Shown here: positions 9,943 to 41,047 of the stretch, one piece after another
Numbering within the stretch: position 1 is the first letter of the stretch
Layout: every line of letters begins with the position of its first letter
Assembly (NCBI GenBank): GCA_964016885.1
Contig: OZ024743.1
Span: 229,524,001 to 229,588,000, forward strand
Length of the DNA: 64,000 nucleotides
Direction: 5' to 3'
Origin: Eledone cirrhosa
Taxonomy: Eukaryota
The notes under the pieces: model-generated
Seen by the model: the letters and a program-made list of their open reading frames with translations, nothing else
Told to the model about the DNA's origin: nothing
The model's database searches: none
Position numbers and translations under genes: made by a program

Positions 9943-9974
<32 letters not shown>

Positions 9975-13829: not shown

Positions 13830-14382
13830 TTGGTCATACCAGATATCATTGTAAAAGTCCAACATAGCAAGGTCTGTTTAGTGCTTGATATGAGCATCCC
13901 CTGTGATCACAATATCGCGTCAAAAGAATTCGACAAGCTAAGAAATTATATAGGTCTGCTTATTGAAATCGAAAAAATGTGGGAACGCAAGGCTGTTACA
14001 ATACCAGTGATTGTGGGCGCAGGAGGAATGATCAAGAAAGGAACAGAACATTATTTGCGAATGATTCCTGGTTTACCCTCTCTGCAAGAGGTGTAAAAAA
14101 TTGTTTTGACTGGTACTGTTACATGTATTGAGAAGAGCAATATCTCTGTGAGAATTATATGCCCCCTCCCCTGTGTGGATGTGTGTTTGAGTGTGTGTGT
14201 GAATACAGCACTATCTCTGTAAGAATGATATCTCTCGGTATGAATGATAATCTGTAAATTATATTCAATGAGGTGTGTTAACTGGGTTACCAAAGTACAC
14301 AGTGACTTTATTTGCCCTAGGTGTCAGGATAACACTCGGCATATATCAGAAACAATACTGAAGGAAAAGGAAAAACAACAAC
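13830..14382 (+). mobile_element. REL-endonuclease non-LTR retrotransposon (R4/Dong-like) 3' fragment 1
   Basis: PDIIVK..LDMSIPCD.N...KE..K...Y..L..EIEKMW..IPVIVGA.G, then 3'UTR and (AAT)n. Same family as 26336-27071. Confidence 0.85.
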
Positions 14383-14397
14383 AATGATAATAATAAT

Positions 14398-14513
14398 TGT
14401 TTTTACTTTTGGCACAAGGCCAACAATTACCCAGTACATTACTGGTACTTTATTTTATCGACCCCGTAAGGATGAAGGGCAAAGTTAACCTCGACGGGAT
14501 TTGAACTCAGACC

Positions 14514-14516
<3 letters not shown>
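14398..14516 (-). mobile_element. tRNA-derived SINE, 5'-truncated
   Basis: B-box GAGTTCAAATCCC, central CTTCATCCTTACGGGGTCGATAAAATAAAGTACC, tail GGCCTTGTGCC..(ATT)n. Confidence 0.8.
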
Positions 14517-14576
<60 letters not shown>

Positions 14577-14819
14577 TTTTCTTTATTAACCACAAGGGCT
14601 TACATAAAGTAGACATTAAGGACAGTACAGGACAATACAGGACGGTACAAATGGGCATTTCTGCGTGTAAAAAAAACAGAGGATGTAATAAAATAACAAA
14701 GAAAGATTCCCCAATAGGGGGGAGACTTCCGAGGGACATTTCTGGAGAAAGCCCATTAAAAGACCACAGTGACCCTGACCACCAGGGCAAGTGCCCTCTC
14801 ATAGTTTTCCACCTTTAAT

Positions 14820-16527: not shown

Positions 16528-16562
16528 GTTTAAAATAGAGTGGAATAGATGTGAAAGACCAC

Positions 16563-18197
16563 TTACCTTACTTTTCATAGAGGAAGGATGGTTTTTCCAC
16601 CCCCTTTCACTTGATCGTCTGGTGAAGGGACCGTTGAATCGTCCCTTCGGCTGGTCGTCGGCTCTTCTATGAGTATGTCCGAATATACTCTCCGGTTGAG
16701 AGTCCCTCCTAGGTCTCTGAAATCACCAACTGCGTTGGGGAATTTCGTTTTAATGTTTGTGCATTGTTTCTGTGTATTTTTAGCAGTCTTATGTTAGTTG
16801 GCGTTTTGATTGGTGCTGGAATTTGATAGTCGTGCTGTAAAATGTCTGTGAGTTCAATTATGGAAGTCATTAGTTTCTTGTTGTGTGTATTTATTGCCGT
16901 GCATTTGTTTTTCTGGGGGTGGGGTGTGGTTCTGCTATTTTCTTGTCGTTGTTGCTGGGTGTGTGTGTTTTGTTGTTGTGTTTGCGATGTTGGTGCTTGT
17001 GGTGGTGGTGTTGAAGGTGTTGTTGTTGTTGTCGGTGGGGTTGTCGCCGGTGGTGATGGTGGTGCTAGTGTGGGTGGTGATGGTGTTGGTGGTGTTGCTG
17101 CTGTGAGTCTCTTTGCAGTAGCCTTTACCCTTTTTCATTTCTTTCCTCCCTTTTCGAAGGCGACGATGCGCTGCTTCTGCGTTTGTGCCTTCTTACGACC
17201 TTTTGCCAACCCTCTCTCACCTCACACTCCATGTCTGATTCTGTGAGGTCGGGGAGGGGTACCACCTCCACTCTTTCACTTATTGTTGTTGGTGATGTTT
17301 GCACTGGAGTCTCTGTTGCAGCTGCATTTGGTATTACTCTTGTTGTTGTTAATAATTCCACTGCTGCTGCTGTTTTTGATTTCCGTGGCGTGGGTATGGG
17401 TGCCACGGACCTATCGTTCCTGGTTGCCGCTTGTCCTGTTGCTGATAGCCGTGGAGCCGGTTTCGGAAGGAGGGGGATTTTCGTTGCAGAAGGCTCTGAG
17501 GTGAGTCTTCGATCCACAGCGAAAGCATTTCGGGCGTTTGCCCTCAACACTTATGGGCAGTTGAGTGCCGTTATCGAAGTCTATCACATCTGGGATAGCT
17601 TCGATGCACTCCTGGTTGGTTTGGATTAACATCTCAATGGAGGTGCCGACCCAATCTTCTATTACCTTTTTCTGTACTTGCAGTACAGTTGTTTTGTCCT
17701 CGATTCCGACGAGGACAGACGCGGCCAGCCAAGAAGGGGCCATCCCGGGGGAGGGGGGGGGGGGGGTCAGTTTGACCCTCACAATTTTTTGCCCGCAGTA
17801 GGAGGGCACCAACACCATTTCCTCGCTCCTTAGGGTCACTAAGGATTGAGCCTTTGCCTCCTGGAGTGTGGCAAAAAGCACGTCTACGGTGGCATATTTC
17901 TTGCCTCGGGTGATGTGCGTTTTCCGCTGCCACACAGACCCTAAGGCATTTTGTATTTGACCCTCTGTGGCTCTTTCAACCCTACGGGATTTTGTGCTTA
18001 CTGTACGGTACGTGACCGTACAGTGCTGTTGGGTTTCGAAACATTTTTCGGCTGCCTTGCAGATTGCTCGGTGTCCGGTTTTCGTCACCATCTTCTTCGC
18101 TTCCTCTAATTCCTCATTTGTTATGAGGATGGATCCAGGTTCTTTGCGATACCTGCAAACGAGATTGGTTTTTCTTTGCTGCTGTTGTTGTTGTTGC

Positions 18198-18228
<31 letters not shown>

Positions 18229-18570
18229 AATGCTGTTGTTGTTTATGCTGCTGCTGCTACTGTTGCGGCTGCTACTGTTGTTTTCATTGTCACTGTTGCT
18301 GCTGCTGCTGCTGTTATTACGGCTGCTACTGCTATTATTCCTGACGTCAGACGAATGAAATGGGTTTTCGTATTCCCCGCACACCTTTTTCGTCGTTGTC
18401 GTCGTCGTCGTGGAGAAATCTTGCACGCTTTCTACGTGATTTTTCTTTTCTGGAGACACATTTAAAGAAGGGAGGGAGAGAGACAATCTTCTCTCTGCTG
18501 TAGTGACGATTGAGGAAGAAGAAGACGGAATGAGTGGGAGTGACATATGAACATTTTTTTTCGTAGCCAT
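16563..18570 (-). pseudogene. Copy A ORF1 remnant (CCHC zinc knuckle)
   Basis: Split across several ORFs, contains CFRCGSKTHLRAFC, homologous to 31776-33875. Confidence 0.88.
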
Positions 18571-19063
18571 GTTTTTTTTTTTGTTTAAAATAAATATTGG
18601 GCACAAAATCCCAATAAGCGGTTATTTAACCCCGAAGGGCCAAATAACGGGCAGAAAAACCCCTCTCACGAGGAGGAGTGTGTTTTTGTCTACAAGTTGG
18701 TTAAAGTTTTAAACAATTTACAATTGTTATAGCGGTCAAAATTTACAATACCTTACAGAGCCGAGCCTCCGAAAACCATAGCATTCAATAATAATAATAA
18801 TAATGATTTCATTTATTGGCCACAAGGGCCGACATATAGGGGACAACACAATAGACAGGGACAGTGGGGGTTTACATAGAGATCGAGTAAGTATAAATAA
18901 CAAAAAAACAAAAACAAAATAACAATAAAAATACAACAATGAAAGTTCCCCAATAAGAGGGATCACCACCCAGGGTTGACTCAAGCACCCCACCAGTCCT
19001 GAGCCACCCGACGCTCCTAGGGCACCCGGGAAGGGCACCCCTCTCCTTCTCGAATTCACCAGC

Positions 19064-22000
19064 CTACAGGCGCATGATCAGAGTAGGCCCACTCACGCGG
19101 GCCATTCTCGCCACATTCACCCACCTTTCAGTAAATGTACTGGGGGGCAGCACTTCTCTCTCCACCCTCACCTTCCTTTCCAAGTGAAACTTGAAGAAGT
19201 TGATGAGGGATTGGCCGAAGAGAAAAGTGTCTGTCTTCAGTCCTTTCAACCTGGTCCACCATGCAACCTCTTTCGCTACTGCCACCAGGCAGAGGAAAAT
19301 TGCCTGCCCTTCCTGACCAAAAGAAGGCGGCGGGTCAATCTTCACTATGGACTCGGACGATAGCCGGATCCGTTCTACACGCGACAATAGCTGTTCGACA
19401 TAACCCCACAAGTCAGCAATGCACGGACACTGGACGAGTGCGTGCAGAACGGTTTCGTCGCTCTGCGCGCATCTCGGGCAGGTTCGTCTGACAGCACTTC
19501 CGTGCCTGTAGAGTTTATCCCGAACCGGCAGCGCCCCCCGGTAGCACTGCCAAGCGAGGGATTTCTGGAAGTTATCCATCGTCCCCGGCTCGAAAGTCCT
19601 CCGGAACATACTGGTCAGTTCTACTTCGTTGACGCCCAGAGCCTCTCCTAGTACGTCATCGCACTTGCCCTCCACTAATCCTCTATAGAAATCTTGAGTG
19701 GAAGTTCCACTGACCGCATTGCCCACCTTGCAGAGTGCAGTGAGCGCCTGGCAACATTCCAGATGCCAGTCGCCCAGTCTCGGTCTCTTCTTGACCCAGG
19801 ACTGCAGCTCAGTCAAAGAGATGAGCTGCGGAAAGGCCCGTCTAACAAACGGCGACCACACCTGTTCACCGTTTAGGCAAAATATCTGGAGATGTCGCAG
19901 CCTCAGCGCATGTCTGCGCATCATTAGCCACGGCATGCCCAGCCCTCCACGAAGAGGGTGCTGGCAGCAGATGGACCGCCTCACCAACGGGACCCGTCCC
20001 CTCCACAAAAATTTGAAAAGGAGCCGTTCCAAATTGGCGAGGCGTGGACGGGGGCAAGGCACGACGGTCAGGCGGTAGTAGATGACGGACGCGATGTACG
20101 CGTTCGCCACCTCCGCCCGCCCTTTCAGTGATAGCTTTCTCTCAGCCCATTTCTGGGTGAGGTTGGCTATCCTGCTCGTCACCTCGTCCCAATTCTTATC
20201 CACCTGGAGGTCTGGTCCGAACCAAACCCCGAGCAACTTTACCGGTCCGTCTGTCCAGCGCCCAACGACGCTGTTGGACGGCATGGACTTGCCTCTCCAG
20301 GTGCCGAGCTGCAAGCCCACCGACTTTTCCGGGTTAAGTTTTGCTCCCGTCAACCTTTCATATTCCTCCAAATGGGTGCGGATCACCTCGATTTCCGAGG
20401 TGTCCGACACCATCACGGTGATGTCGTCCGCATAAGCGGACGCAGCCTTTCTACGTCCCGGTTCGAGCGGGATGCCCTGCAACAACTCCAGCTTCCGCAG
20501 TAGAGGCTCAAGAGTCAATACGTACAGAAGTGAGGAGAGAGGGCACCCTTGACGGACCGATCGAGAGATCTGAAACGGTTCCGAGAGGTGGCCATTAACT
20601 TTGACCACCGAGCGGATGCCGCTGTACATTGCAGCGATCCAGCTTCTGAAGACGGGGCCGAAGCCAGCCGCCTCGAGGACAGCCTCCAAGTACCGATGGT
20701 CGACCCTATCGAATGCTTTCGATTGATCTAAATTGATCAGAGCCCCACCGAAGCCAGGTTTGCACCCAACCCTCTCTATGATGTATCGCATGAGGTGGAG
20801 GTTGTCGTGTATGGACCTGGTCGGGATTGCGCAAGTTTGCGCCTCCCCAACCAAATCTTTGACGACAAGCGCCAACCTTTTCGCTAACACCTTGGCCAAA
20901 ATCTTAAACTCTGTGTTGAGCAGGGTTATGGGCCTGAAATTATCTAGTGTGTCCCTCTTGTTCTCGTCTTTCCTTATCAGCGTCACTACGCCACGGCTCA
21001 CAGAACTGGGAATGCTCCCGTTCTGCTGCCAGTTGCAGTAGAGCGCTTCGAGGAGATCGGAGAACAAGTCTGGCATATTTACGTAAAGCTCGTAGGGCAG
21101 ACCATCCAAACCGGGTGACTTGCGACTCGAGCAGCCGACAAGGGCGTCCTGAATTTCGGCTGATGTTATCGGCTCTTCGCAGCGCTCAGCGTTGGCCGTC
21201 GAGAGGCGTGGCAAGCCGTCGAGGTAGGGACTGAAGTCCGCCGCCGTCTCCGACTCACCCATCCTCCCGAACAATCGAGCAAAGTGCTGGCGAAAGGCCT
21301 CACACATCTGCTTGGAATCGCTCAGTTCGTGTCCATCTCGATCCGTCAAAGACCGAATTGTGGTTTTATTTCCACGCTGCGTCTCTGCAAAGCGAGCCCA
21401 TCGGGCAGCTTTGGTTCCCTCGTTCCTCAGAGCACGCGCCTTAGCTCTGACAATGCAACCTTCGTGTTTCGCATTGAAGAAATGGTCTAGTGCCATTCTC
21501 GCCGCTAGCACGTCTGTTGCAATGCCACTACAAATAGCCTCGTCTAACTTAGCTATCAGCCCCTCCTCCTTTCTATTTTTCTCTATTGCTACTTCTTTGC
21601 TAAATCCTATCGAGGTTGCTCTAATCTCTCTTTTGAGTGCCCCCCACCACCTGTTGTTGACAACCCCCCCTGTCAACTTTTGCTTAACTAAGTTGTTGAC
21701 CCGGTCCCTGTAAGCTTTACGTGCCGGAAACGACATGTTTAGCTTCCAGTAGCTAGGTCCTAACCTACGTGTCTTATCTAGGTCGACCATACAGATCACA
21801 AGCTTGTGATCTGAATAGGCAACCGTTTTAAAATGTGGACATCCTACACTATTTCTATCTCTTTTCCTAATGAAAATCCTATCTATGTACGATCTAGATG
21901 ACCCTATGCGATTGGTCCAGGTCCATACTGGCGCATTAGGGAAATCTAGTCGGTACCTGTCAGACAGTTGAAACTGGCTGATCAGGTACTTGAGGCTTTT

Positions 22001-22483
22001 GCACCCCCCGCTCCTATCAGATACTCCCACACAATCCCAGCGTGCTTCTAAGATGCCATTCCAATCCCCTATTAACAGTAAAGGGCGAGACGTAAGCAGA
22101 AAGTTTTCCAGGCGCCTAAAGAAGTCCGGCCGACCGGCCCCAGTAGGGGCGTAGACGGCCACCAGTCTAAAGGCACCACCTTCGCTATTGCTCACGTCCA
22201 GGACCACCAACTTTCCGTCAGGATCCCGGAAGATTGACCTTACCTCGAGATCCAGACATTTCCTAAACAGCACAGCCACTCCACCTCCCATTCCCGGCCG
22301 ACTAACAGATGCAAAGATCTGATAATCGTCGAAAATCGGCGCCAGTGCGCGTGTGTCGGAAATTCTGGTCTCGCTGATGGCAATTACATCCATTCCTAGT
22401 GACCTGAGGTCGTTGAGCAAGTGACCTTGCTTCCAGGGCGACCCCAGGCCACGAACATTTAAACTTCCTACTCTTATGGCCAT
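19064..22483 (-). CDS. LINE ORF2: APE endonuclease + reverse transcriptase + C-terminal zinc finger (1139 aa)
   Basis: GSLNVRGL, ISET, YAP, GDWN, IDR..SDH, YWKLN, PGLDG, RPITLLN, LDQSKAFDRVDH, RQGCPLS, YADD, CPRC..ETVLHALVQC. Confidence 0.97.
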   Translation of the reverse strand: MAIRVGSLNVRGLGSPWKQGHLLNDLRSLGMDVIAISETRISDTRALAPIFDDYQIFASVSRPGMGGGVAVLFRKCLDLEVRSIFRDPDGKLVVLDVSNSEGGAFRLVAVYAPTGAGRPDFFRRLENFLLTSRPLLLIGDWNGILEARWDCVGVSDRSGGCKSLKYLISQFQLSDRYRLDFPNAPVWTWTNRIGSSRSYIDRIFIRKRDRNSVGCPHFKTVAYSDHKLVICMVDLDKTRRLGPSYWKLNMSFPARKAYRDRVNNLVKQKLTGGVVNNRWWGALKREIRATSIGFSKEVAIEKNRKEEGLIAKLDEAICSGIATDVLAARMALDHFFNAKHEGCIVRAKARALRNEGTKAARWARFAETQRGNKTTIRSLTDRDGHELSDSKQMCEAFRQHFARLFGRMGESETAADFSPYLDGLPRLSTANAERCEEPITSAEIQDALVGCSSRKSPGLDGLPYELYVNMPDLFSDLLEALYCNWQQNGSIPSSVSRGVVTLIRKDENKRDTLDNFRPITLLNTEFKILAKVLAKRLALVVKDLVGEAQTCAIPTRSIHDNLHLMRYIIERVGCKPGFGGALINLDQSKAFDRVDHRYLEAVLEAAGFGPVFRSWIAAMYSGIRSVVKVNGHLSEPFQISRSVRQGCPLSSLLYVLTLEPLLRKLELLQGIPLEPGRRKAASAYADDITVMVSDTSEIEVIRTHLEEYERLTGAKLNPEKSVGLQLGTWRGKSMPSNSVVGRWTDGPVKLLGVWFGPDLQVDKNWDEVTSRIANLTQKWAERKLSLKGRAEVANAYIASVIYYRLTVVPCPRPRLANLERLLFKFLWRGRVPLVRRSICCQHPLRGGLGMPWLMMRRHALRLRHLQIFCLNGEQVWSPFVRRAFPQLISLTELQSWVKKRPRLGDWHLECCQALTALCKVGNAVSGTSTQDFYRGLVEGKCDDVLGEALGVNEVELTSMFRRTFEPGTMDNFQKSLAWQCYRGALPVRDKLYRHGSAVRRTCPRCAQSDETVLHALVQCPCIADLWGYVEQLLSRVERIRLSSESIVKIDPPPSFGQEGQAIFLCLVAVAKEVAWWTRLKGLKTDTFLFGQSLINFFKFHLERKVRVEREVLPPSTFTERWVNVARMARVSGPTLIMRL

Positions 22484-22512
22484 GCTGGCAGGATGAATGG
22501 GAGAGGAAAGGT

Positions 22513-24423
22513 TTACTTACCTTCCGGGGTCTTGTGAAGGTCGGGTGGTTCGACCTCCATGGTTTGTGGGGTTTCTTTTGGGAACCCCTTTAATAGTCTT
22601 GACGTGGGTTTTACGTTCGGGGTTCCCACATCCCGAGGAAAGCTCTTTCGAATTTCTTTGTATGAAGCGAGCGACATTCGCATCAGAAGCAAATTATCTG
22701 GTACGCGAAATGTGCTCGCTTCAAATGTTTCCCCGTCTTTTTCGATGTTTGTGCTTCGTGCTACATGGGCCATCAATTCCTTGTTGGCCCTTCTGGCGAG
22801 CACGAAGTTTTTAATGTTTTGTTGCTCGGGTTTTATTTGTTCGTGTGATTGTGGTGGTGATAGCTTTGTTAGTGTTGTTTCTATTGTGTCTGCGTTTGTT
22901 GTGGGTGGGGTGTCTGTAGTTTCTGATGTTTGTGTGTCTATTTGTTCTTGTGTCTGTTTAGCTTGTTTGCGTTTGGGGGATTTTGGTGGTTGTGTTGGTG
23001 ATGCTGTGGGGAAAATGTTTGTGTGGGTGGTGTGTGTATTTTTTTTTGTGGGGGTGTCTGTGCTTTGTGGATTTCTTTTTTTTTTGTGTTTTGTTTTTTG
23101 TATTTTGGGGGACTTTGGTTTTCCCTCATCTTCACTGCTGGAGGATGAGGGGTCTGTGGCTGTGAGCGTGTTTGTGTCTGAGTGAGTGTTTATGTTCTTG
23201 TTCGTGTGTGTATTTTGGGGGGGAGGGGGAATGGGAGAGCTTTCCTCGTTTCCCCCCTGGGTGTGCAATTTTGGTGGTTCCATTGTTGACGGTGTTGCTG
23301 GTGGTCCTTGTCCCGGCGTCGCCAGCAGTGGAATCTTTCGACCCCTTGCGCTTTTCGGCAGTTGAGGGCAGAAGGCTCGCAAGTGTGTCGTTTCCCCACA
23401 AAGGAAACAATGCGGCCTTTTGCCCTCAGTCATTATATGCAACACCCTCCCGTTTTGGAGGCGGATGTGGTCCGGGATTGTTTTTACGTTTTCGGGTCTG
23501 ATTTGGAGCAGTATCTCCAGATCAACCCCGGACCAGTCGTCCCTGGCAGTTCTCGTTGCCTCTACCGGGACTGTATCCGTTCCTTCCACGATTACGCAAC
23601 CCAGGAGCCACCACATATCAAGTCCTGGTGGAATCCTGGGAATGCGCACACGTGCTATTCGTTTTCCCATGTGGGAGGGGTACATTATGACCTTGCTGGT
23701 TTTGCAAGGGGTCATTGAATGCTTCACAGCGAGGGCTTCAGACTTGAACAGCACCGAAACGGTGCCGTATTGCCTGCCCCTCTCTATGAAGTCTGTGTCC
23801 TCTCTGATGTATTTCAGTGCGGCTTCTATGTCAGCTTGGGCGATTATCGCTGCCCTCTTTGTCTCTACTGAGATGCATCTGAAATGCACCGTTCTTTTTT
23901 CCACTGCCTCAATGGCTTCTGCCGGGACAGTTAAGTTTGCCCAGGTCTGCTCTTGATTTATGATTTTCCAGGCCTGGGCCAACTTTTCCTCTCTGTTGGT
24001 TAAGTCGATGCTGTAGCATGGTCTCCTTTTAGCCGCTGCCACAGCAGCGAAAGTGTTCTTGTTGGTGTTGTCACTGTTGTTGTTCTTGTTGGTGTTGCTG
24101 CTGCTATTGCTGTTGTTGTTCTCCCCTGTGTCGTGGTTACCTTCTGTGCTGTTGGCCTTGTTGGTGCTGCTGCTGTCGCTACTATTACTCTCTGTGCTGT
24201 TCGTTTTGTTGGTGCTCTCGCTATTACCACCTTCTGCGCTGTTCGGCTTGTTGGTGTTGGTGTTGTCGCTGTTACCACCTTCCGCGCCGCTCGGCCCGTT
24301 GGTGCTGGCACTGTCGCTGCTCACATTCGTGCTGGTGGCTCTCCTCGCCTCACCTCTCCTCTCAACGCTCAAGTCGCCGTTGCACGACAGCAGACCCGCC
24401 TCTAGGGGGCGTGGCTCCGCCAT
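22513..24423 (-). CDS. LINE ORF1 nucleic-acid-binding protein with CCHC knuckle (636 aa)
   Basis: CFLCGETTHLRAFC, S/N-rich N-terminus, P/T/K-rich C-terminal region, lies immediately upstream of ORF2. Confidence 0.92.
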   Translation of the reverse strand: MAEPRPLEAGLLSCNGDLSVERRGEARRATSTNVSSDSASTNGPSGAEGGNSDNTNTNKPNSAEGGNSESTNKTNSTESNSSDSSSTNKANSTEGNHDTGENNNSNSSSNTNKNNNSDNTNKNTFAAVAAAKRRPCYSIDLTNREEKLAQAWKIINQEQTWANLTVPAEAIEAVEKRTVHFRCISVETKRAAIIAQADIEAALKYIREDTDFIERGRQYGTVSVLFKSEALAVKHSMTPCKTSKVIMYPSHMGKRIARVRIPRIPPGLDMWWLLGCVIVEGTDTVPVEATRTARDDWSGVDLEILLQIRPENVKTIPDHIRLQNGRVLHIMTEGKRPHCFLCGETTHLRAFCPQLPKSARGRKIPLLATPGQGPPATPSTMEPPKLHTQGGNEESSPIPPPPQNTHTNKNINTHSDTNTLTATDPSSSSSEDEGKPKSPKIQKTKHKKKRNPQSTDTPTKKNTHTTHTNIFPTASPTQPPKSPKRKQAKQTQEQIDTQTSETTDTPPTTNADTIETTLTKLSPPQSHEQIKPEQQNIKNFVLARRANKELMAHVARSTNIEKDGETFEASTFRVPDNLLLMRMSLASYKEIRKSFPRDVGTPNVKPTSRLLKGFPKETPQTMEVEPPDLHKTPEGK

Positions 24424-24656
24424 GTTTTTTTGAGAAAAAAATTATTATTTTTTTCAAAATAAAGTTCAAATATTTGGGCCAAAAGGCCCAAATATTATGA
24501 GTTATTCCTTCACAGGATACAAATTAATGTCTTATAATGCTTCAGCGGTACAAAAAATAAACAATTCTCTACAATTAATCCTCAAAAATTGCTTACTCAC
24601 GGAGCTTCAAAAAACGTACATCCACTTTCGTCAATAATAATAATAATAATAATAAT

Positions 24657-25399
24657 AAAAGGCTACAGAAGGAATGTTAATGGCTGCGCAAGAGCAGGCC
24701 CTCAAAACAAAGTGGTTGAAACACCATATTTACAAGGAGGGGGCTAGCCCACTGTGCAGGATCTGTGGAGAGAGAGAGGAGACTGTGGCTCACATTGTAT
24801 CCGAGTGTAAACACCTAGCCCAGACTCACTATAACGGCTGGCGACATGATATGATGAGCAGGGTGATCCACTGGCACCTATGCAAAGTAAACAATTTACC
24901 ACTTAGAAGTTGTATGAGCATAAGCCAGAGTCGGTGATAGAAAACGATCAGGTGAAGGTGCTGTGGGATTTTAGGATACAGACGGACAAGAAACTGGAAC
25001 ACAATAGACCTGACCTGGTGGTTTTGGACAAAGAAAAAAGATCGTGCCTGATTGTGGATGTGGCCTGCCCATTCGACACGAGAGTGCAAGAGAAGGAGAG
25101 GAGAAAATTAACCGATACCAGGACTTAAAGTGGGAGGTAATAAGGATTTGGAACTGCCATGAAGTCAAAGTGGTCCCGATTGTCATAGGCGCACAAGGTA
25201 CTATCTCAAAAAGTTTCCAGGGATGGTTAAAGAAAATTGGCCCCGCCACGCTTTTTGGAACGCTTCAAAAGGCATGCTTGCTGGGAACAGCAAGAACCCT
25301 CCGATACGTCCTGAATATCTGAGGCTGCAGGTAGTGGCTTGATATTCATTTCAACAAACTTTCCAGTTAACTAACATAAATGACTGAGACTCAAAGAAC
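24657..25399 (+). mobile_element. R4/Dong-like REL element 3' fragment 2
   Basis: TEGMLMAAQEQAL..CRICG..ETVAHIVSEC..RHD..WDFRIQTD..RPDLV..IVDVACP..YQDL..VPIVIGA. Frameshifted, with (AAT)n tail. Confidence 0.9.
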
Positions 25400-25426
25400 A
25401 ATAATAATAATAATAATAATTATAAT

Positions 25427-26307
25427 ACCCAGAGCGAGCTAACAATCCTGATGTTGACAAAACTTTAACCCATCAGTGGTTGGCATCCTCTGGACTGAAA
25501 TCGGAGACTGAATGACTGATTATATCGGCACAAGATCAGTGTCTGCCAACAAAAAATTACCAAGCCAACATAATAAAAAATGGGTGCAGCCCATTATACC
25601 ATGTATGCAAAAAACAACCAGAGACCATTGACCATATAATTTCAATGTGCAGTCCTATAGCTCCAACCGAATACCTAAACAGGCATGACAGAGCTGCACA
25701 ATACATACATTGGATAATGTGTAAGCATTTTGACCTGCCCCATCAAAAGAATTGGTGGGAGCATCAACCACCTCCCATATTTGAAAAAGATCACATCTCA
25801 ATCTTGTGGAACTTTAGCATCCAAATAGACCGAAAAATAGATGCAAACAGACCTGATATAATATTGAAAGACTTTAAAAAGAGGGTATGCCTGCTAATTG
25901 ATATGTCTGTTCCAATAGACAAGAATGTATCTATAAAAACATTTGAAAAATTGAGCACGTATAAGGACCTGGAGATAGAAATTGGAAAAATGTGGAAATT
26001 GAGAACTAAAACAATACCAGTGGTTGTAGGCGCTCTGGGAATGATACCTAAGGGGGCTAATGATTACTTATCGCAAATCCCAGGAAACCCGCGTATAGGA
26101 GAAATACAAAAGATAGTACTAATGGGAACTGCCCATATACTAAGGAAGATTCTGTCAATATAAGTACATCACAAGTCTAAACACTAAAGATGCATGTGTG
26201 AATATGTATGTTCTTTCTTGAACATGGCGGACCTTGTTGTCTCTTGAGGTCACTGGTTGTGACTTGGTGATAACTCGTATGAACATAAAGCAAGATAAAT
26301 GCAACTG
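25427..26307 (+). mobile_element. R4/Dong-like REL element 3' fragment 3
   Basis: GLKSETE..AQDQ..ETIDHIISMC..YLNRHD..RPDIIL..LIDMSVP..KLSTYKDL..IPVVVGALG, (TAA)n tail. Confidence 0.9.
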
Positions 26308-26335
26308 TAATAATAATAATAATAATAATAATAAT

Positions 26336-27071
26336 ATAAACCCAAAGTGCCGATTCTGCAATGCTGGGGTTGAAACAGTGGATCACTTAGTCTCTGGATG
26401 TAATGTTTTAGCACAAATATAGACATGACAGAGTTGGCCAGTATCTACACTGGGTAATATGTCGGCATTACAAAATCAAAGCTGAAGACAAGTGGTACAG
26501 TCATCACTCTGAGGCTGTAACTGAAGGAGAAAAAGTAACAATTCTCTGGGACTTTCCTGTACATACTGACAGGACCATAAAAGCAAATAGACCTGACATC
26601 ATTGTAAAAGATCAACATAACAAGGTCTGTTTATTGATAGATATGAGCATCCCATGTGATCACAATATCGCGGCAATAAAACTGGACAACCTACGAAAAT
26701 ATAAAGATCTGCTTATTGAAATTGAGAAAATGTGGCACCTCAAGGCCGTTACAATACCAGTAATTGTGGGAGGACTGGGAATGACCAAGAAAGGAACAGA
26801 ACAATATTTGCGAATGATTCCTGGTTTACCCTCTCTGCACGAGGTGCAACAAATTGTTTTGACTGGTACTGTACACGTATTAAGAAGAGCACTATCTCTG
26901 TAAGATTGATATCCCTCCTTGTATTTACATATATGCATATGTGTATATATATGTATACTGTTTTTTTAAAATTATAATCAATGTGCTGTATTAACTGGCT
27001 TACCAATGCACACTGAATTTATTTGCCCTAGCTGTCAGGAAGACACTCGGCATATATCTCAGAATAAAAAC
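26336..27071 (+). mobile_element. R4/Dong-like REL element 3' fragment 4
   Basis: PKCRFC..ETVDHLVSGC..RHD..WDF..RPDIIVK..IDMSIP..KYKDL. 3'UTR shared with fragment 1, (AAT)n tail. Confidence 0.9.
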
Positions 27072-27083
27072 AATAATAATAAT

Positions 27084-27803
27084 ACTAGCTACAGAAGGAA
27101 TGCTAATGGCTACGCAAGAGCAAGCCCTCAGAACGAAGTGGGTGAAACACCATATTGACAATGAGGAGGCTAGCTCACTGTGTAGGATCTGTGGAGAGAG
27201 AGGAGATTGTGGCTCACATTGTATCCGACTCACTATAAAGGCTGGAGACATGATATGATAGGCAGGGTGATCCACTAGCATCTAAGCAAAGTAAAACAAT
27301 TTACCACATTCTGAGAAGTGGTATAAGCATAAGCCAGAGTCAGTGATAGAAAACGATCAGGTGAAGGTGCTATGGGATTGTAGGATACAGACGGACAAGA
27401 AATTAGAACACAATAGGCCTAGTGGTTTTGGAGAAGGAAAAAAGATCGTGCCTGATTGTAGATGTAGCCTGCCCATTTGACACGAGAGTGCAAGAAAAGG
27501 AGAGGGAGAAAATTAACCGATACCAGGATTTAAAGTGGGAGTTACAAAGGATTTGGAACTGCCATGAAATCAAGGTCGTCCCGATTGTCATAGGCGCACT
27601 AGGTACTATCTCAAAGAGTTTCCAAGGATGGTTAAAGAAGATTAGACCAGCCCTGCTTTTTCGAACACTTCAAAAGGCATGCTTGCTGGGAACAGCAAGA
27701 ACTTTTCGATACGTCCTGAATATCTGAGGCTGCAAATAGCGGCTTGATGTTATTTCAACAAACTTTCCAGTTAAATAACATCAATGACTGACACTCAAAG
27801 AAC
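27084..27803 (+). mobile_element. R4/Dong-like REL element 3' fragment 5
   Basis: Collinear with fragment 2 including the 3'UTR ending CTCAAAGAAC(AAT)n. Confidence 0.9.
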
Positions 27804-27833
27804 AATAATAATAATAATAATTATTATTATTAT

Positions 27834-28024
27834 TTCTGATTTAGGCACAAGGCCAACAATTATAACGAACCAGTGTGTTACTGGTACTTTATTCTTTCCA
27901 TCCCGCAAGGATAAAAGGCAAAGGTAACCTCGGTGGGATTTGAACTCTGAATGTAAAGCACCGTAACTCTATGCTACACTGCATGTTGTCCGGCGTACTA
28001 CAGATACTGCTAATCCACCGCCCT
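27834..28024 (-). mobile_element. tRNA-derived SINE, near full length
   Basis: GGCGGTGGATTAGCAG head, B-box GAGTTCAAATCCC, central domain, GGCCTTGTGCCTAAATCAGAAA tail. Confidence 0.82.
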
Positions 28025-28025
28025 G

Positions 28026-28059
<34 letters not shown>

Positions 28060-28320
28060 TTTCTTTATTAACCACAAGGGTTTACATAAAGTAGACATTA
28101 AGGACAGTGCAGGACAATGCAGGACGGTACAAATGGGCATTTCTGCGTGTAAAAAAAACAAAAATAGAGGATGTAACAAAAATAACAATGAAAATAACAA
28201 TGAAAAATTCCCCAATAGGGGGGAGACTTCGGAGGGACATTTGTGGAGAAAGCCCAGTAAAAAGCCACAATGACCCTGACCACCAAGGCAAGTGCCCTCT
28301 CCCAGTTTTCCACCTTTAGT

Positions 28321-31300
28321 TTACAGATATATACTCAGAGTCGGCCCATTCACTCGGGCCATTCTTGCTTCTCTCACCCATCTTTCAACAAAATGCTGGG
28401 AAGAGAGCACTTCCTTCTCTACTCTGATTTTCCTTTTCAAATGAAATTTGAAAAAGTCAATCAGAGCATCACCGAAGAGGTAAGTGCTCGTCTTCAGCCC
28501 TTTCAAACGTGTCCACCATACTATCTCTTTCGCCATGGCCACCAGACAGATAAAAACTGCCTGCCCTTCCCGGCTAAAGGAGGAGGGCGGGGCAATCCTC
28601 ACGATAGACTCAGATGATAGCTGGATCCGTCCTAAACGCGACAGCAGGTGTTCGACATAAACCCACAAGTCAGCAATTTTCGGACACTGGACGAGTGCGT
28701 GCAGGACGGTTTCGTCGCCCTGCGCGCATCTCGGACATGCCCGGCTGACGGCACCTCCATGCCTGTAGAGTTTATCCCGAACTGGCAAGGCTCCTCGGTA
28801 GCACTGCCAGGCCAGAGATTTCTGGAAGTTGTCCATAGGCCCCGGCCCGAAGGTTCTTCCGAAGAGATTGGCTAGTTGATTTTCGTCGACGCCTAGAGTT
28901 TCCCCAAGTACGTCGTCGCTCTTCCCCTCCACTAATCCTCTATAGAACGCCGAGGTGGAGTTTCCACCGATCACATTGCCCGATTGGTCGAGGGCTGTGA
29001 GCGCCTGAAGACATTCCAGTCTCCAGGCGCTCCCTCTCGGTCTTCGCTTGACCCAGGACTGCAGCTCCGTCAAGGAAACGAGCTGGGGAAAAACGCGTCT
29101 AGCAAACGGCGACCACACCTGATCACCGTCGAGGAAGAGGTGGAGATGTCGTAGCCTGAGCGCGTGCCTGCGCATCATCAGCCACGGCATGCCCAGCCCT
29201 CCACGTAGCGGGTGTTGACAACAGATGGACCGCCTGACCATCGGAGCACGTCCCTTCCACAAAAAGCGAAAGAGCAAACGCTCCAGCGCAGTCAGGCGAG
29301 GCTTAGGACAAGGTACGACGGTTAGGCGGTAGCAGATGACAGACGCGATGTACGCGTTAGCCACCTCCGCTCGACCTTTCAGGGATAGCTTCCTCTCCGC
29401 CCATTTCTGGGTGAGAGAAGCCACCCTGCTCGTCACCTCGTCCCAGTTTTTGTCCGTCTGGAGGTCCGGACCGAACCAGACCCCTAGCAATTTAACCGGT
29501 CCGTCCGTCCAGCGCCCGACGACGCTGTTGGACGGCATGGACCTGCCTCTCCAGGTGCCGAGCTGCAGGCCCACTGACTTTTCCTGGTTGATCATTGCTC
29601 CTGTCACCGCTTCGTATTCTCTTAGTGTAGTGCCGATCGCCTCGATGTGTTTGGCGTTCGACACCACTACGGTGACATCGTCCGCATATGCTGACACGGA
29701 TCTTCCGCATCCTAGTTCGCGCGGGACTCCCCTCAACGTCTCCAGTTTGTGCAGTAATGGCTCGAGAGTCAATACGTACAAGAGGGACGAGAGGGGACAT
29801 CCTTGGCGGACCGAGCGCATGATGTTGAACGGTTCCGACAGGTGACCGTTCACTCTCACTACAGAGCAGATGTCGCTGTGCATGGCAGCGATCCAGCCTC
29901 TGAAGACGGGCCCAAAGCCAGCCGCCCTCAGGACTGCCGCTAGGTAACGATGGTCGACCCTATCGAAAGCTTTCGACTGATCTAAATTGATCAAGGACCC
30001 ACCCGTGCCAGGTTCCCTAGCTACCCTCTCTACGATGTATCGCATGAGGTGGAGGTTGTCGTGGATGGATCTGTCGGGAATGGCGCATGTCTGCGCCTCT
30101 CCCACCAGACCACCAACGACAAGCGCCAACCTCTTTGCTAGCACCTTGGCCAAAATCTTAAACTCTGTGTTTAGCAGAGTTATGGGCCGGAAATTGTCTA
30201 TGTTATCCCCCTTGTTCGGATCCTTTCTCAGCAGTGCCACCGCTCCTCGGCTCACAGAACTGGGAATTCTCCCGTTCTGTTGCCAGTTGCAGTAGACGTC
30301 CGCCAAGAGGCCTCCGAACAAGTCTGGCATCTGTACGTAAAGTTCATAGGGCAGACCATCCAAACCAGGCGATTTACCCCTTCTGCAGCCAGTCATTGCC
30401 TCCCTTACTTCAGCGGCTGTTATCGGCTTTTCGCAACACTTCGCCTCAGTGGCCGAGAGCCGCGGCAGTCCGTCGAGGTAGACACTAAAGTCCATCCCTC
30501 TACCCGGCCCCCCGCTGCCCCCGAACAGCTGAGCGAAGTGTCGCTGAAAAGCTTCACACATTTGCCCGGGATCGAGTAGCATGCGCCCGTCGTGGTCCAC
30601 CAAAGACCGGATCGTGGCTTTGTTGCCACGACGCGCCTCCGCCACTCGGGCCCATTGAACGGCTTTCGTCCCCTCGTGTCTGAGAGCACGCACCCTAGCT
30701 CTGACAACGCAGCCTTCGTGCTTTGCATTGAAGAATTGGTCAAGGGCCAATTTCGCCGCAAGCACGTCGGTCGCAATGCCTTTGCTAAGCGCCTCGTCTA
30801 ATTTTCTAACTAGTTCTCCCTCTGCTCTATTTTTCTCTATTGCTAAAGCCTTACTAAACCTAATCGATTCTATTCTAATCGCTCTTTTCAGAGCAAACCA
30901 CCACTTGTTGTTGACGATGGCCCCCGTCAACGCCCTCTTAACTAGTTCGCTAATCCGGTCTCTGTAGGCCTTGCGCGCTGGTAAGGACGCGTTTAGCTTC
31001 CAGTAGCCGGGTCCTCGTCTATGAAGCCTATCTAAGTCAAGCACACAGATCACGAATTTGTGGTCCGTGTAGCTGACTATCTTGAATTGTGGACAGCCTA
31101 TGCTAGACCTATCTATTTCCCTACAAAATACTCTATCTAGATATGATCTGGATGACCCTATGCGGTTTGTCCAAGTCCACATTGGCACATTCGGGAAATC
31201 CAATCGGTACCTGTCAGACAGTTCAAAACGCCTGAGCAGGTTGGTGAGGCTGTTGCACCCTCCACCCCTATCCGCTAATCCCACACAGTCCCAGCGTGCA

Positions 31301-31740
31301 TCTAAGATCCCGTTCCAGTCGCCCACTAACACTAAAGAGCGGGACGTTCCAAGAAAGGTCTCCAGACGCCGGAAGAAATCAGGCCGCCCTGCTCCTGTCG
31401 GGGCATAGACGGCCACTAGCCTGAAAGCTTGCCCGTCTCCGCTGGTCACGTCCAGCACCACCAGCTTACCCTCTGGGTCCAGGAAGATGGCCCGTATGGC
31501 GAGATCCAAACCTCTCCGAAAAAGCACAGCAACTCCTCCACCCGATCCAGGACGGCTGGGAGATGCGTACACATCGTAGCCGCCGAAGATCGGTGCGAAG
31601 GCCCGTGCTTCGGAGATTCTGGTCTCGCTGATGGCCACTACATCTATGTTTAGTGACCTGAGGTCGTTGAGCAGGTGACCCTGCTTCCATGACGACCCCA
31701 AGCCACGCGCATTTATGCTGCCTATTCTGAGTGAGGTCAT
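28321..31740 (-). CDS. LINE ORF2: APE endonuclease + reverse transcriptase + zinc finger (1139 aa)
   Basis: GSINARGL, ISET, YAP, GDWN, LDR..TDH, PGLDG, LDQSKAFDRVDH, RQGCPLS, YADD, CPRC..HALVQC. Confidence 0.97.
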   Translation of the reverse strand: MTSLRIGSINARGLGSSWKQGHLLNDLRSLNIDVVAISETRISEARAFAPIFGGYDVYASPSRPGSGGGVAVLFRRGLDLAIRAIFLDPEGKLVVLDVTSGDGQAFRLVAVYAPTGAGRPDFFRRLETFLGTSRSLVLVGDWNGILDARWDCVGLADRGGGCNSLTNLLRRFELSDRYRLDFPNVPMWTWTNRIGSSRSYLDRVFCREIDRSSIGCPQFKIVSYTDHKFVICVLDLDRLHRRGPGYWKLNASLPARKAYRDRISELVKRALTGAIVNNKWWFALKRAIRIESIRFSKALAIEKNRAEGELVRKLDEALSKGIATDVLAAKLALDQFFNAKHEGCVVRARVRALRHEGTKAVQWARVAEARRGNKATIRSLVDHDGRMLLDPGQMCEAFQRHFAQLFGGSGGPGRGMDFSVYLDGLPRLSATEAKCCEKPITAAEVREAMTGCRRGKSPGLDGLPYELYVQMPDLFGGLLADVYCNWQQNGRIPSSVSRGAVALLRKDPNKGDNIDNFRPITLLNTEFKILAKVLAKRLALVVGGLVGEAQTCAIPDRSIHDNLHLMRYIVERVAREPGTGGSLINLDQSKAFDRVDHRYLAAVLRAAGFGPVFRGWIAAMHSDICSVVRVNGHLSEPFNIMRSVRQGCPLSSLLYVLTLEPLLHKLETLRGVPRELGCGRSVSAYADDVTVVVSNAKHIEAIGTTLREYEAVTGAMINQEKSVGLQLGTWRGRSMPSNSVVGRWTDGPVKLLGVWFGPDLQTDKNWDEVTSRVASLTQKWAERKLSLKGRAEVANAYIASVICYRLTVVPCPKPRLTALERLLFRFLWKGRAPMVRRSICCQHPLRGGLGMPWLMMRRHALRLRHLHLFLDGDQVWSPFARRVFPQLVSLTELQSWVKRRPRGSAWRLECLQALTALDQSGNVIGGNSTSAFYRGLVEGKSDDVLGETLGVDENQLANLFGRTFGPGPMDNFQKSLAWQCYRGALPVRDKLYRHGGAVSRACPRCAQGDETVLHALVQCPKIADLWVYVEHLLSRLGRIQLSSESIVRIAPPSSFSREGQAVFICLVAMAKEIVWWTRLKGLKTSTYLFGDALIDFFKFHLKRKIRVEKEVLSSQHFVERWVREARMARVNGPTLSIYL

Positions 31741-31775
31741 GTTTAAAATAGAGTGGAAAAGATGGGAAAGACCAC

Positions 31776-33875
31776 TTACCGTACTTTTGGTAGAGGAGGG
31801 ATGGTTTTTACATCCCTTTTCACTTGATCGTCTGGTGAAGGGACCGTTGAATCGTCCCTTCGGCTGGTCGTCGGCTCTTCTAAGAGAATGTCTGAATATA
31901 CTCTTCGATTAATGGTTCCTCCTAGGTCCCTGAAATCACCAACTGCGTTGGGGAATTTCGTTTTAATGTTTGTGTATTGTTTCTGTGCTATTTTTAGCAG
32001 TCTTATGTTAGTTGGCGTTTTGATTGGTGCTGGTATTATGTAGTCCTGTTGTGAAATGTCTGTGTGTTCAATTATGTAAGTCATTAGTTTCTTGTTGTGT
32101 GTATTTATTGCCGTGCATTTGTTTTTCTGGGGGTGGGGTGTGGTTCTGCTATTTTCTTGTCGTTGTTGCTGGGTGTGTGTGTTTTGTTGTTGTGTTTGCG
32201 ATGTTGGTGCTTGTGGTGGTGGTGTTGAAGGTGTTGTTGGCGGTGGGGTTGTCGCCGGTGGTGATGGTGGCGCTAGTGTGGGTGGTGATGGTGTTGGTGT
32301 TGTTGCTGCTGTGGGTCTCTTTGCAGTAGACTTTACCCTTTTCTCATTTCTTTCCTCCCTTTTCAAAGGCGACGATGCGCTGCTTCTGCGTTTGTGCCTT
32401 CTTACGACCTTTTGCCATCTCTCTCCCACCTCACACTCCATGTCTGATTCTGTGAGGTCGGGGAGGGGTACCAACTCCACTCTTTCACTTGTTGTTGTTG
32501 GTGATGTTTGCACTGGAGTCTCTGTTGCAGCTGCATTTGGTATTGCTGTTGTTGTTGTTAGTATTTCCACTGCTGCTGCTGTTTTTGATTTCCGTGGAGT
32601 GGGTATGGGTGCCACGGGCCTATCGTTCCTGGTTGCCGCTTGTCCTGTTGCTGGTAGCCGTGGAGCCGGATTCGGAAGGAGGGGGGTTTTCTCCTTTCTC
32701 AGGGTCTTCTCGTTGCAGAAGGCCCTGAGGTGAGTCTTCGATCCACAGCGAAAGCATTTCGGGCGTTTGCCCTCAACACTTATGGGCAGTTGAGTGCCGT
32801 TATCGAAGTCTATCACATCCGGGATAGCTTCGATGCACTCCTGGTTGGTTTGGATTAGCATCTCAATGGAGGAGCCGACCCAATCTTCTCTTACTTTTTT
32901 CTGTACTTGCAGTACAGTTGTTTTGTCCTCGATTCCGACGAGGACAGACGCGGCCAGCCAAGAAGGGGTCATTCCGGGGGGGACGTGGGTCAGTTTGACC
33001 CTCACAATTTTTTGCCCGCAGTAGGAGGGCACCAACACCATTTCCTCGCTCCTTAGGGTCACTACTGATTGGGCCTTTGCCTCCTGGGGTGTGGCAAAAA
33101 GTACGTCTACGGTGGCGTATTTTTTGCCTCGGGTGATGTGCGTTTTCCTCTGCCACACAGACCCCAAAGCTTTTTGTATTTGGGCCTCTGTGGCTCTTTC
33201 CACCCTACGGGATTTTGTACTTACTGTACGGTACGTGACCGTACAGTGCTCTTGGGTTTCGAAAAAATTTTTCGCTGCCTTGCAGATTGCTCGGTGTCCG
33301 TTCTTTGTCACCATCTTCTTCGCTTCCTCTAATTCCTCATTTGTTATGAGGATTGTTTCCAGGTTTTTCGCAATACCTGCAAATGAGATTGGTTTTTCTC
33401 TGCTGTTGTTGTTGTCGTCAGAGCTGCTGGTACTTTTGTTGTTGCTGCAGGTACTACGACTACTGCCTCCGCCGCTGTTGCTGTGGTTGTTGTTGGTGTT
33501 GCTGCTGCTAATGCTGTTGTTGTTTATGCTGCTGGTGATGCTGTTGCGGCTGCTACTGTTGTTTTCATTGTCACTGTTGCTGTTGTTATTACGGCTGCTA
33601 CTGCTATTATTCCTGACGTCAGACGAATGAACTGGGTTTTCGTATTTCCCGCACACCTGTTTCGTCGCTGTCGTCGTCGTCGTGGAGAAACCTTGCACGC
33701 TTTGCACGAGACTTTTCTTTTCTTTCGTCGCTTGCGAAAGAGAAGGTAGGGAGAGAGACACATTTAAAGAAGGGAGGGAGAGAGACAATCTTCTCTCTCC
33801 TGTAGTGATGATTGAGGAAGAAGAAGACGGAATGAGTGGGAGTGACGTATGAAATTTTTTTTTTTTGGTAGCCAT
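31776..33875 (-). CDS. LINE ORF1 with CCHC knuckle (first ATG at 33875, MATKKKK)
   Basis: CFRCGSKTHLRAFC, S/N tract, P/T tract. Same ATG context in copy A. Confidence 0.9.
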   Translation of the reverse strand: MATKKKKFHTSLPLIPSSSSSIITTGERRLSLSLPSLNVSLSLPSLSQATKEKKSLVQSVQGFSTTTTTATKQVCGKYENPVHSSDVRNNSSSSRNNNSNSDNENNSSSRNSITSSINNNSISSSNTNNNHSNSGGGSSRSTCSNNKSTSSSDDNNNSREKPISFAGIAKNLETILITNEELEEAKKMVTKNGHRAICKAAKNFFETQEHCTVTYRTVSTKSRRVERATEAQIQKALGSVWQRKTHITRGKKYATVDVLFATPQEAKAQSVVTLRSEEMVLVPSYCGQKIVRVKLTHVPPGMTPSWLAASVLVGIEDKTTVLQVQKKVREDWVGSSIEMLIQTNQECIEAIPDVIDFDNGTQLPISVEGKRPKCFRCGSKTHLRAFCNEKTLRKEKTPLLPNPAPRLPATGQAATRNDRPVAPIPTPRKSKTAAAVEILTTTTAIPNAAATETPVQTSPTTTSERVELVPLPDLTESDMECEVGERWQKVVRRHKRRSSASSPLKREERNEKRVKSTAKRPTAATTPTPSPPTLAPPSPPATTPPPTTPSTPPPQAPTSQTQQQNTHTQQQRQENSRTTPHPQKNKCTAINTHNKKLMTYIIEHTDISQQDYIIPAPIKTPTNIRLLKIAQKQYTNIKTKFPNAVGDFRDLGGTINRRVYSDILLEEPTTSRRDDSTVPSPDDQVKRDVKTIPPLPKVR

Positions 33876-34803
33876 GTTTTTTTGTTTAAAATGAAATTTT
33901 GGGTACAAAACCCCAATAACTGGCTATTTAACCCCGAAGGGCCAAATAACGGACAGAAAGACCCCTCTCACGAGGAGGAGGGTGTCTTTATCAACAATTT
34001 GGTTCAAGTTTTAAACAATTTACAATTGTTTTAACGGTTAAAAATTACTATACCTTACAGAGCCGAGCCTCCGTCAACCATGGCATTCAATAATAATAAT
34101 AATAATAATGATAATGATTATACATATATAGACATATACATATATAGTCATATACATTAATATATCCATCCATCCATATATGTATACATATGTACATACA
34201 TAAGTGCATGCGTGCATATATGCATGAATGCATACATAAATACATACATCCATGCAATAATAATTAATTGCAGTAACAAAGCTCCGGACATGTAACATAT
34301 AGACTGATCAACGCTGCAATGACCGTCGTCTTAGTGACCACAGCTATTGGCCGTCGCCATTTTAATTTTGTCGTTTATTGCATCAATGTCAAAAGGTGAC
34401 ATTTATTGTCCCAGTAAAACTAGGACCGGCTTGTTGCCACTGGCTTTAACCAACTTAATCGAATTATCTTTCGACGACCAAGTCGTCTGTCCAGTTCGCT
34501 ACGTATGATGTTGACCATCCGAATCATCTGGACCGTACGTATGTCCTATAAATTCATCAAAAACAAAGTAAACCGTGTAAGATCTCGTTCGTTCAGTATG
34601 ATTGCCAGGAATTAAGAAATTTACGTTATTTACTGTTATCGAACACATAAATTATCGATTAACTCCGTCCAATCTCATTTCTTTTAGATAATGTCCACCA
34701 TCATTTCACGCCCACACAGACACATACATACATGCATATGCACACAAAAATGCAAATTTATATGTATAAGTGTGTGTGTGTACACATATATAAATGTGTA
34801 TAC

Positions 34804-40861: not shown

Positions 40862-41047
40862 TTGTTTCTACTTTAGGCACAAGGCCAGCAAATAACCAGT
40901 GCATTACTGGTACTTTATTTTATCGACCCCGTAAGGATGAAAGGCAAAGTAAACCTCGGCGGGATTTGAACTCAGACCGTAAAGGGACGTAACTATGGTG
41001 GAAAGCATGGCGTCCGACCCTCTACCGATACTGCCAATCTACCACCC
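40862..41047 (-). mobile_element. tRNA-derived SINE (further decayed copies near 38492+, 46431-, 47421+, 54023+, 56112-)
   Basis: Same B-box, central CCTTTCATCCTTACGGGGTCGATAAAATAAAGTACC and GGCCTTGTGCC tail. Confidence 0.82.

Follow-up and report, generated by a model that had tools for sequence, protein, structure and literature searches.

Two full-length long interspersed nuclear elements (LINEs), named B and C, were identified in a 64,000-nt stretch of Eledone cirrhosa contig OZ024743.1 (assembly GCA_964016885.1). This whole stretch is called the window, and its numbering is used for all coordinates in it (Table 1). The favoured explanation, taken together with the mechanism proposed below, is reasonably likely: B and C would each be a young, full-length member of a separate family, both families belonging to an octopod lineage of Tx1-like LINEs. 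Both elements are flanked by (ATT)n runs, and both end in a 3' hairpin that is also found in a tRNA-type short interspersed nuclear element (SINE).

Both elements lie on the minus strand, and all four of their open reading frames (ORFs) are free of interruptions. ORF2 of B and of C matched the Pfam families Exo_endo_phos, RVT_1 and zf-RVT above the curated cut-offs, and each contains the catalytic motifs of the apurinic-type endonuclease (APE), the YADD motif of the reverse transcriptase (RT) and a CX2CX8HX4C zinc finger. With catalytic residues intact and an ORF1 accompanying an ORF2 of the APE, RT and CCHC type, both have the organization of autonomous APE-type non-LTR (lacking long terminal repeats) elements of the L1 group. 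The ORF1 proteins of the Tx1 clade are characterized by RRM-type domains and a CCHC knuckle. Both ORF1 proteins here possess a CX2CX4HX4C knuckle, and although the Pfam search gave no match to them above cut-off, their closest look-alikes by protein features were zf-CCHC, RBD_ZCCHC3 and RRM (scores 0.88-0.93, to be taken as a lead), with RNA-binding and CCHC proteins recovered for C; the Tx1-type combination is thus present by way of the knuckle and these look-alikes. A preliminary description of this DNA had called B and C intact and full-length, with uninterrupted ORFs and the APE, RT and zinc-finger motifs, and this was confirmed with both ends of each element placed exactly. An assembly artefact was ruled out by the absence of N and by matching public contigs.

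The ORF2 proteins of B and C share 75.1% amino acid identity over 1138 aa (76% at the nucleotide level), against 35% across 254-280 aa for the ORF1 core, and the 5' untranslated regions (UTRs) are essentially unalignable, the longest local alignment being at most 19 columns. The earlier statements that the ORF2s are homologous while ORF1 and the 5' UTRs are strongly diverged, and that the two elements represent distinct families, therefore hold, separate families being supported by the 76% identity across ORF2. Differences between the two ORF2s amount to 18/13/38% at the three codon positions, which indicates that purifying selection acted on ORF2 after the two families split.

The best named matches of these elements are proteins of Argonauta hians (69%, or 56% for an endonuclease piece), so that the host of the window is probably an octopod. 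The next relatives form a group at 38-48% identity, followed by vertebrate Tx1 at about 29%. ORF2 of Xenopus Tx1L (YTX2) matched with 29% identity and 327 bits and human L1 ORF2p with 180 bits, in databases that differ. Two FastTree phylogenies were computed, one of 85 sequences after thinning and one of 53/53 sequences with outgroups of the restriction-like endonuclease (RLE) type. The octopod clade joins its sister group on a single branch (support 1.0), separate from the group of Xenopus Tx1 and fish elements, and the octopod elements occupy a long branch of their own in both trees. The families Kibi and Koshi were not labelled among the matches, and B and C are named Tx1-like since neither tree contains a named L1 reference.

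The sister lineage, 41% identical, was found by a scan of genome collections as 38 overlapping loci (L055-L090, L093 and L094) in one bacterial metagenome-assembled genome (MAG), evidently as misbinned eukaryotic DNA; it comprises several families in long same-strand head-to-tail arrays without (ATT)n, for which neither the array ends nor a target site could be located. A scan of metagenomes returned 54 loci, all distant (best segment 21-48%), and scanned viral contigs contained no relatives. One distant (28%) Tx1-like element in another bacterial MAG (L091) is bounded on both sides by matches to U1 small nuclear RNA (3036-3199 and 9961-10137) and is possibly a U1-targeting or U1-headed Tx1.

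Evidence for recent amplification comes from public sequencing runs. In run X1, whose kind is not recorded and which may be the window's own source, 87,172 contigs matched positions 18700-34200, and 20,390 of these were at least 99% alike. The five listed contigs of B differ from it at 3 positions in 1513 nt (0.2%) plus one 6-nt gap, at a depth of 1857-2156; three divergent contigs that were listed as well have depths of 9.8-12.5. Contigs of run X5 tile C, showing 41 differences over 5822 nt (0.7%), and barely cover B. Summed X1 depth climbs towards the 3' end in both elements, reaching 140-227 thousand in B from 6-9 thousand at its 5' end and 600-780 thousand in C from 81-181 thousand, a pattern expected of 5' truncation, to which related families may add in the 3' bins. 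Since near-identical contigs and gradients of this kind were found for both families, B and C were very probably amplified recently. If X1 is genomic, the depth suggests roughly a hundred near-identical copies of B, depth being an unreliable guide to copy number. Families of Octopus vulgaris were counted as recently active in PMC13282606 at no more than 2% from consensus over at least 90% of the length; C stands at 0.7% over 5822 of 6031 nt and B at 0.2% over the 1513 nt of its listed contigs, with contigs standing in for a consensus. From each of two raw-read runs, X22 and X23 (about 1.9 Gb), five reads matched in part; these runs are uninformative.

The earlier proposal of two recently active families is thus supported as to recent amplification; for present-day mobility of B and C the chances are about even. 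They might instead be intact leftovers of a recent burst that has since fallen silent, a somewhat less probable reading to which the private changes of C lend weight, as it differs at 7 displayed sites from nearly all X1 depth and by 0.7% from the X5 contigs. The intact ORFs of both elements speak against it, as do the distance of only 0.2% between B and its high-depth contigs and the 421 L1-Tx1 insertions within 2% of consensus in O. vulgaris (PMC13282606). One X1 contig, at a depth of about 2500, joins C-like to B-like sequence (30893 to 21644) near the boundary of endonuclease and linker and is possibly a mosaic family. At least half of the sampled words of C occur in 11 runs with several coded organism labels, for which no distinction can be drawn between related species, DNA from prey or the environment, and horizontal transfer.

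All six ends of B, C and a third element, the older C-family copy A, lie in (ATT)n in a single phase: at the 5' end (ATT)n is followed by GA, and at the 3' end GAAA(T/A)C is followed by (ATT)n, the last six letters being GAAATC in both B and C. Runs of the AAT class account for only 12 of the 199 perfect microsatellite runs in the window (270 bp), 10 of them between 14515 and 34109, so that the six (ATT)n ends are not a matter of chance. Far commoner are AT or AC runs (143 of 199), none of which hosts A, B or C. The endonuclease loop aligned to T192-S202 of L1 is also identical in B and C, although 6 of its 13 codons are synonymously changed, which rules out recent gene conversion as the source of the identity. 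It differs in four of the five close relatives that cover the loop, among 28 matches examined. Studies of L1 tie this loop to target choice (PMC1950540), and its identity gives modest support to a shared target of B and C.

Several points weigh against an (ATT)n target. Nine identical loop residues have a p of about 0.06 at endonuclease-wide identity, and L1 loop grafts failed to transfer specificity (PMC1950540). The target evidence comprises three insertions of B/C type, all in one cluster; moreover the 5' run of A is the tail of B and that of B adjoins an R4-like fragment, leaving only that of C as independent. Element D, with the same terminus, lies in (CT)n/(TATC)n, and runs of (ATT)4 or more were found within 1300 nt downstream of ORF2 in none of 37 sister loci. 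The flanks of D and the sister loci together show that the ATT target is at most a family-level preference and not a lineage-wide one. As D, a single copy, combines the common 3' terminus with (CT)39 and (TATC)4 flanks, it hints at target switching within the lineage.

It is unlikely, though conceivable, that the (ATT)n is simply the elements' own 3' tail, that insertion is non-specific or AT-rich, and that the 5' runs derive from a hotspot seeded by (TAA)n-targeting Dong elements. Two of the three 5' runs do adjoin another element, Dong targets (TAA)n in molluscs (PMC7998251), hotspots of transposable elements are known from O. vulgaris (PMC13282606), and SINE copies with the same tail occupy AT-rich sites outside microsatellites. 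Yet no element neighbours the 5' run of C, the three 5' junctions share one phase and the three LINEs one orientation relative to the repeat, and none of them sits in the commoner AT and AC runs. An ATT preference of B and C is therefore judged likely from these junctions, and it probably extends to ATT/AAT-like DNA instead of being confined to long microsatellites. The common (ATT)n preference proposed earlier is plausible, all three B/C-type copies in the window fitting it in one phase, within one cluster; in PMC4494074, an element is counted as target-specific when more than 20% of its genomic copies are flanked by one target type.

The 3' ends of A, B, C, D and the SINE have a common terminus, a hairpin with the loop CT(T/C)GT followed after 9-10 nucleotides by GAAA. 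Matches to the SINE occur at nine places in the window, six of which keep the 3' end, and A- and B-box-like motifs were recognized in it by eye. The motif CCT(T/C)GTG-N9/10-(G/A)AAA occurs eight times in the window against 0.175 expected (200 Markov simulations), and the eight sites are the ends of A, B, C and D and of four SINEs; two more SINE ends are degenerate. The motif is present in none of the 54 distant metagenome loci. The sister lineage served as an independent test, 37 of its 38 loci having sequence downstream of ORF2: GGC-CT(T/C)GT-GCC precedes AATAAA in 33 of the 37 and a variant with one loop base changed in the other 4. In these loci the 11-mer is found 62 times in forward and never in reverse orientation, and in the window it is found four times, always at SINE ends, against about 0.01 expected. 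A two-part rule of hairpin plus AATAAA holds for 34 of 38 sister loci and 2 of 56 distant ones.

Stem pairing is kept in 82.5% of cells in 10 window termini and in 85% in 16 termini, with double-sided changes, a value reached by none of 500 shuffles; the set of 16 omits two degenerate SINE ends, one near-duplicate sister variant and the loop-variant family, and the structure was derived from the same sequences as were scored. Folding of 80 nt recovered the small hairpin in A, B and C and its inner two pairs in D, and did not recover it in three SINE ends. The SINE equals A, C and D in the spacing from hairpin to terminus. The stringent type of common tail is thus represented by a shared 3' end, a stem-loop and compensatory changes, though the shared part is short and the independent changes few.

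Some observations qualify this partnership. The window motif was defined after both LINE and SINE ends had been seen, the covariation amounts to few events, the stem of D is weak and the tail shared by LINE and SINE measures only about 22 nt. The second stem pair of the SINE is G-C, as in the sister lineage, where A-D have C-G, and the SINE copies (83% alike) predate B and C. Both SINE copies that have clear target duplications also lie outside microsatellites. These were the only clear duplications among seven elements tested (15 and 18 bp), and their ATT/AAT-like starts suggest that SINE insertion follows a relaxed ATT/AAT-like preference.

Convergence or chance at a short polyadenylation-like end, with the SINE moved by RTE, CR1 or L2, is an improbable source of the likeness. 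The match is indeed short (13-17 of 24 nt, ungapped), the mollusc SINE partners in print are CR1 and L2, and RTE, CR1 and Dong are abundant in octopus. Against this stand the sister-lineage 11-mer, which within the window is confined to SINE ends, the spacing shared with A, C and D, the rarity of the two-part rule in distant loci, and the termini of five R4-like fragments, which score just 10-13 of 24 and were the non-Tx1 3' ends compared. That the SINE is partnered by this Tx1-like lineage is accordingly considered quite likely on the sequence evidence. Since it shares a stem pair with the sister lineage and its spacing with the octopod LINEs, and is the older, its partner is probably the lineage and not necessarily the families of B and C. 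An Rfam search of the window gave no matches and ARAGORN reported nothing on the SINE heads; ARAGORN did report a tRNA-Stop (anticodon TTA) at 12851-12946, which is unsupported by Rfam and probably spurious.

Table 1. Elements, ORFs, repeat runs and hairpins in the window
Feature	Position	Strand	Description
Element B	18805..24632	-	Full-length Tx1-like LINE, 5828 bp; from ORFs, Pfam domains, motifs, junctions
B ORF1	22513..24423	-	636 aa; CX2CX4HX4C knuckle at aa 339
B ORF2	19064..22483	-	1139 aa; APE-RT-CCHC
Element C	28058..34088	-	Full-length Tx1-like LINE, 6031 bp; from ORFs, Pfam domains, motifs, junctions
C ORF1	31776..33875	-	699 aa; CCHC at aa 374
C ORF2	28321..31740	-	1139 aa; APE-RT-CCHC; endonuclease hairpin loop aa 188-200, same as B
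Element A	14576..18786	-	Older C-family copy, ~92% identical; frameshifted, ~1.7 kb internal ORF2 deletion; head-to-tail with B
Element D	58334..58896	-	5'-truncated third family; 59-62% aa to C/B C-terminus; 5' flank (CT)39, 3' flank (TATC)4
(ATT)20	14515..14575		3' end of A
(ATT)6	18787..18804		Shared: 3' flank of B and 5' flank of A
(ATT)8	24633..24656		5' end of B; adjoins truncated 5' end of first R4-like fragment (R1)
(ATT)10	28026..28057		3' end of C, then SINE head
(ATT)7	34089..34109		5' end of C; sole 5' run without adjoining element
3' hairpin of A	14588..14600	-	
3' hairpin of B	18818..18830	-	4-bp stem, loop CTTGT
3' hairpin of C	28070..28082	-	4-bp stem, loop CTTGT
SINE	27835..28025	-	tRNA-type, full length; shared hairpin 27844-27854 at 3' end
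SINE copy	14393..14515	-	5'-truncated; shared hairpin 14411-14421
SINE copy	40863..41048	-	Outside cluster; shared hairpin; 15-bp target-site duplication starting ATTAATT
SINE copy	54018..54154	+	5'-truncated; shared hairpin; 18-bp duplication (17/18 match) starting AATATTAT
Four R4/Dong-like fragments	24657-25399, 25421-26308, 26336-27071, 27084-27803	+	RLE-type, 5'-truncated, in tandem; each ends in (AAT)n
Fifth R4/Dong-like fragment	13838..14375	+	Beside A; end approximate

The fragments in the spacer between B and C, which we take to be R4/Dong-like from their architecture, no match carrying the name Dong, correspond to the C-termini of RT proteins of about 1200 aa without an APE domain and have (AAT)n ends. 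All five R4-like fragments of the window lie on the plus strand and the three LINEs and two SINEs of the cluster on the minus strand. The first and last of the tandem four (24657-25399 and 27084-27803) are 87% alike and start at nearly the same position; this pair may reflect a short derivative that is non-autonomous, a favoured point of truncation or duplication at the locus. It is very improbable that A and C are one insertion copied by segmental duplication and hence not independent evidence of the target, for although both have a SINE and an R4-like fragment in the same order on the 3' side, A and C are 91.5% identical (blastn; 92.4% in the 3' part) and the flanks less alike (SINEs 83%, R4-like pieces 78%), the SINE is truncated next to A and full length next to C, and C is only 0.7% from the X5 contigs, so that the duplication is largely refuted. 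Elsewhere in the window, short ORFs at 1323-2294, 8400-8987 and 44008-44688 have no Pfam match in the frames given and resemble remnants of Penelope-type GIY-YIG or RT sequences. A 370-bp inverted repeat, 99.7% identical, occupies 1-370 and 1004-1373.

Elements of this class insert by target-primed reverse transcription, begun by a nick of the APE endonuclease. In B and C the endonuclease would nick the (AAT)n strand, probably at the TpA step as in L1, and would be steered partly by the loop the two share. ORF2 would bind its own RNA through the 3' CU(U/C)GU hairpin, in the manner of stringent recognition, and the (AUU)n at the RNA end could pair with the nicked primer and aid priming. Every insertion would leave (ATT)n on both sides and so offer the next target, giving rise to the A-B tandem and the cluster, and R4/Dong-like elements would use the same runs in the opposite orientation. 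The tRNA-type SINE may mimic the 3' end and be mobilised in trans by this lineage, and the family responsible would probably be an older or a sibling one, not B or C. A wider extension can be put forward only tentatively: a distinct invertebrate Tx1-like lineage would keep one conserved 3' hairpin for stringent recognition of its template while its families switch targets via changes in the endonuclease loop, would have driven a major SINE expansion in octopods and, with Dong on the opposite strand, would build self-extending (AAT)n arrays. If so, B and C would target (ATT)n and D a (TC)n-like sequence, with head-to-tail arrays in the sister group, and B and C could be used as active, microsatellite-directed elements.

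Intact Tx1 copies in an octopod are ordinary on their own, and microsatellite-targeting Tx1 elements, young octopus L1-Tx1 families and the (TAA)n target of Dong are already known. The preliminary description had found (ATT)n unfamiliar as a Tx1 target; no (ATT)n or (TAA)n target of Tx1 was found in the literature, the search being of print and not of Repbase or Dfam, where the families may be catalogued, and this part of the claim stands beside the microsatellite-specific Tx1 families already published (PMC4494074). The available text of PMC4758252, PMC4824008, PMC9115989, PMC8967140, PMC3531059, PMC4640811 and PMC10294476 names neither a partner of octopus SINEs nor an ATT-targeting Tx1. (ATT)n is thus probably a new microsatellite target for Tx1-like elements. 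The newer result is the lineage-wide 3' hairpin held in common with a frequent SINE; no report of the hairpin sequence was found in the literature. SINEs account for 11.6% of the genome in O. vulgaris (PMC13282606), PMC8967140 regards their expansion as specific to octopus, and a named partner LINE for them was not found in the literature; the shared hairpin provides a concrete and testable candidate and, if the pairing is real, would bring a Tx1-like element into the set of stringent LINE/SINE pairs. With B and C, two intact families have a target in common but unrelated 5' UTRs; alongside relatives having other loops and flanks, they also form a natural series for the study of microsatellite choice by APE endonucleases.

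The elements can be compared with several known systems. In O. vulgaris, 80 L1-Tx1 families were reported, 13 of them recently active, with 421 insertions (PMC13282606), and B and C may well belong among such families; no analysis of their targets or SINE partners was found in the available portions of that paper and its supplement. Tx1 families have been described in (TC)n, (TTC)n, (TTCC)n and (TTTC)n (PMC4494074). Kibi, Koshi and the crocodilian (TTCC)n/(TTTC)n families are, like B and C, APE-type Tx1 or Tx1-like elements in microsatellites, but their targets are pyrimidine-rich and their hosts vertebrates, in contrast to (ATT)n and an invertebrate host here (PMC4494074); A, B and C do not lie in (TC)n or (TTC)n, and only D adjoins (CT)n. 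Xenopus Tx1L has the same domain order in ORF2 (YTX2) as B and C, but it targets a DNA transposon, has an ORF2 of 1308 aa and differs in its endonuclease loop. R4/Dong elements use (TAA)n in insects, molluscs and cnidarians (PMC7998251). They share this kind of microsatellite with the B/C cluster, where fragments of such type lie between B and C, but possess an RLE endonuclease, a single ORF and the opposite repeat orientation. The pairs UnaL2/UnaSINE and maize LINE1-1/ZmSINE2 resemble the present case in a shared 3' hairpin with a conserved loop and compensatory stem changes (PMC3747384), the shared part here being shorter (about 22 nt) than in the common-tail pairs of that paper, whose Table 1, in the text available, lists no Tx1 or mollusc pair. 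Finally, Tx1-Mar and SINEU provide a case in which a Tx1 group was likewise proposed as the mobiliser of a SINE; that proposal was argued from shared target, age and 5' heads (PMC4494074), whereas the one made here is argued from a shared 3' hairpin.

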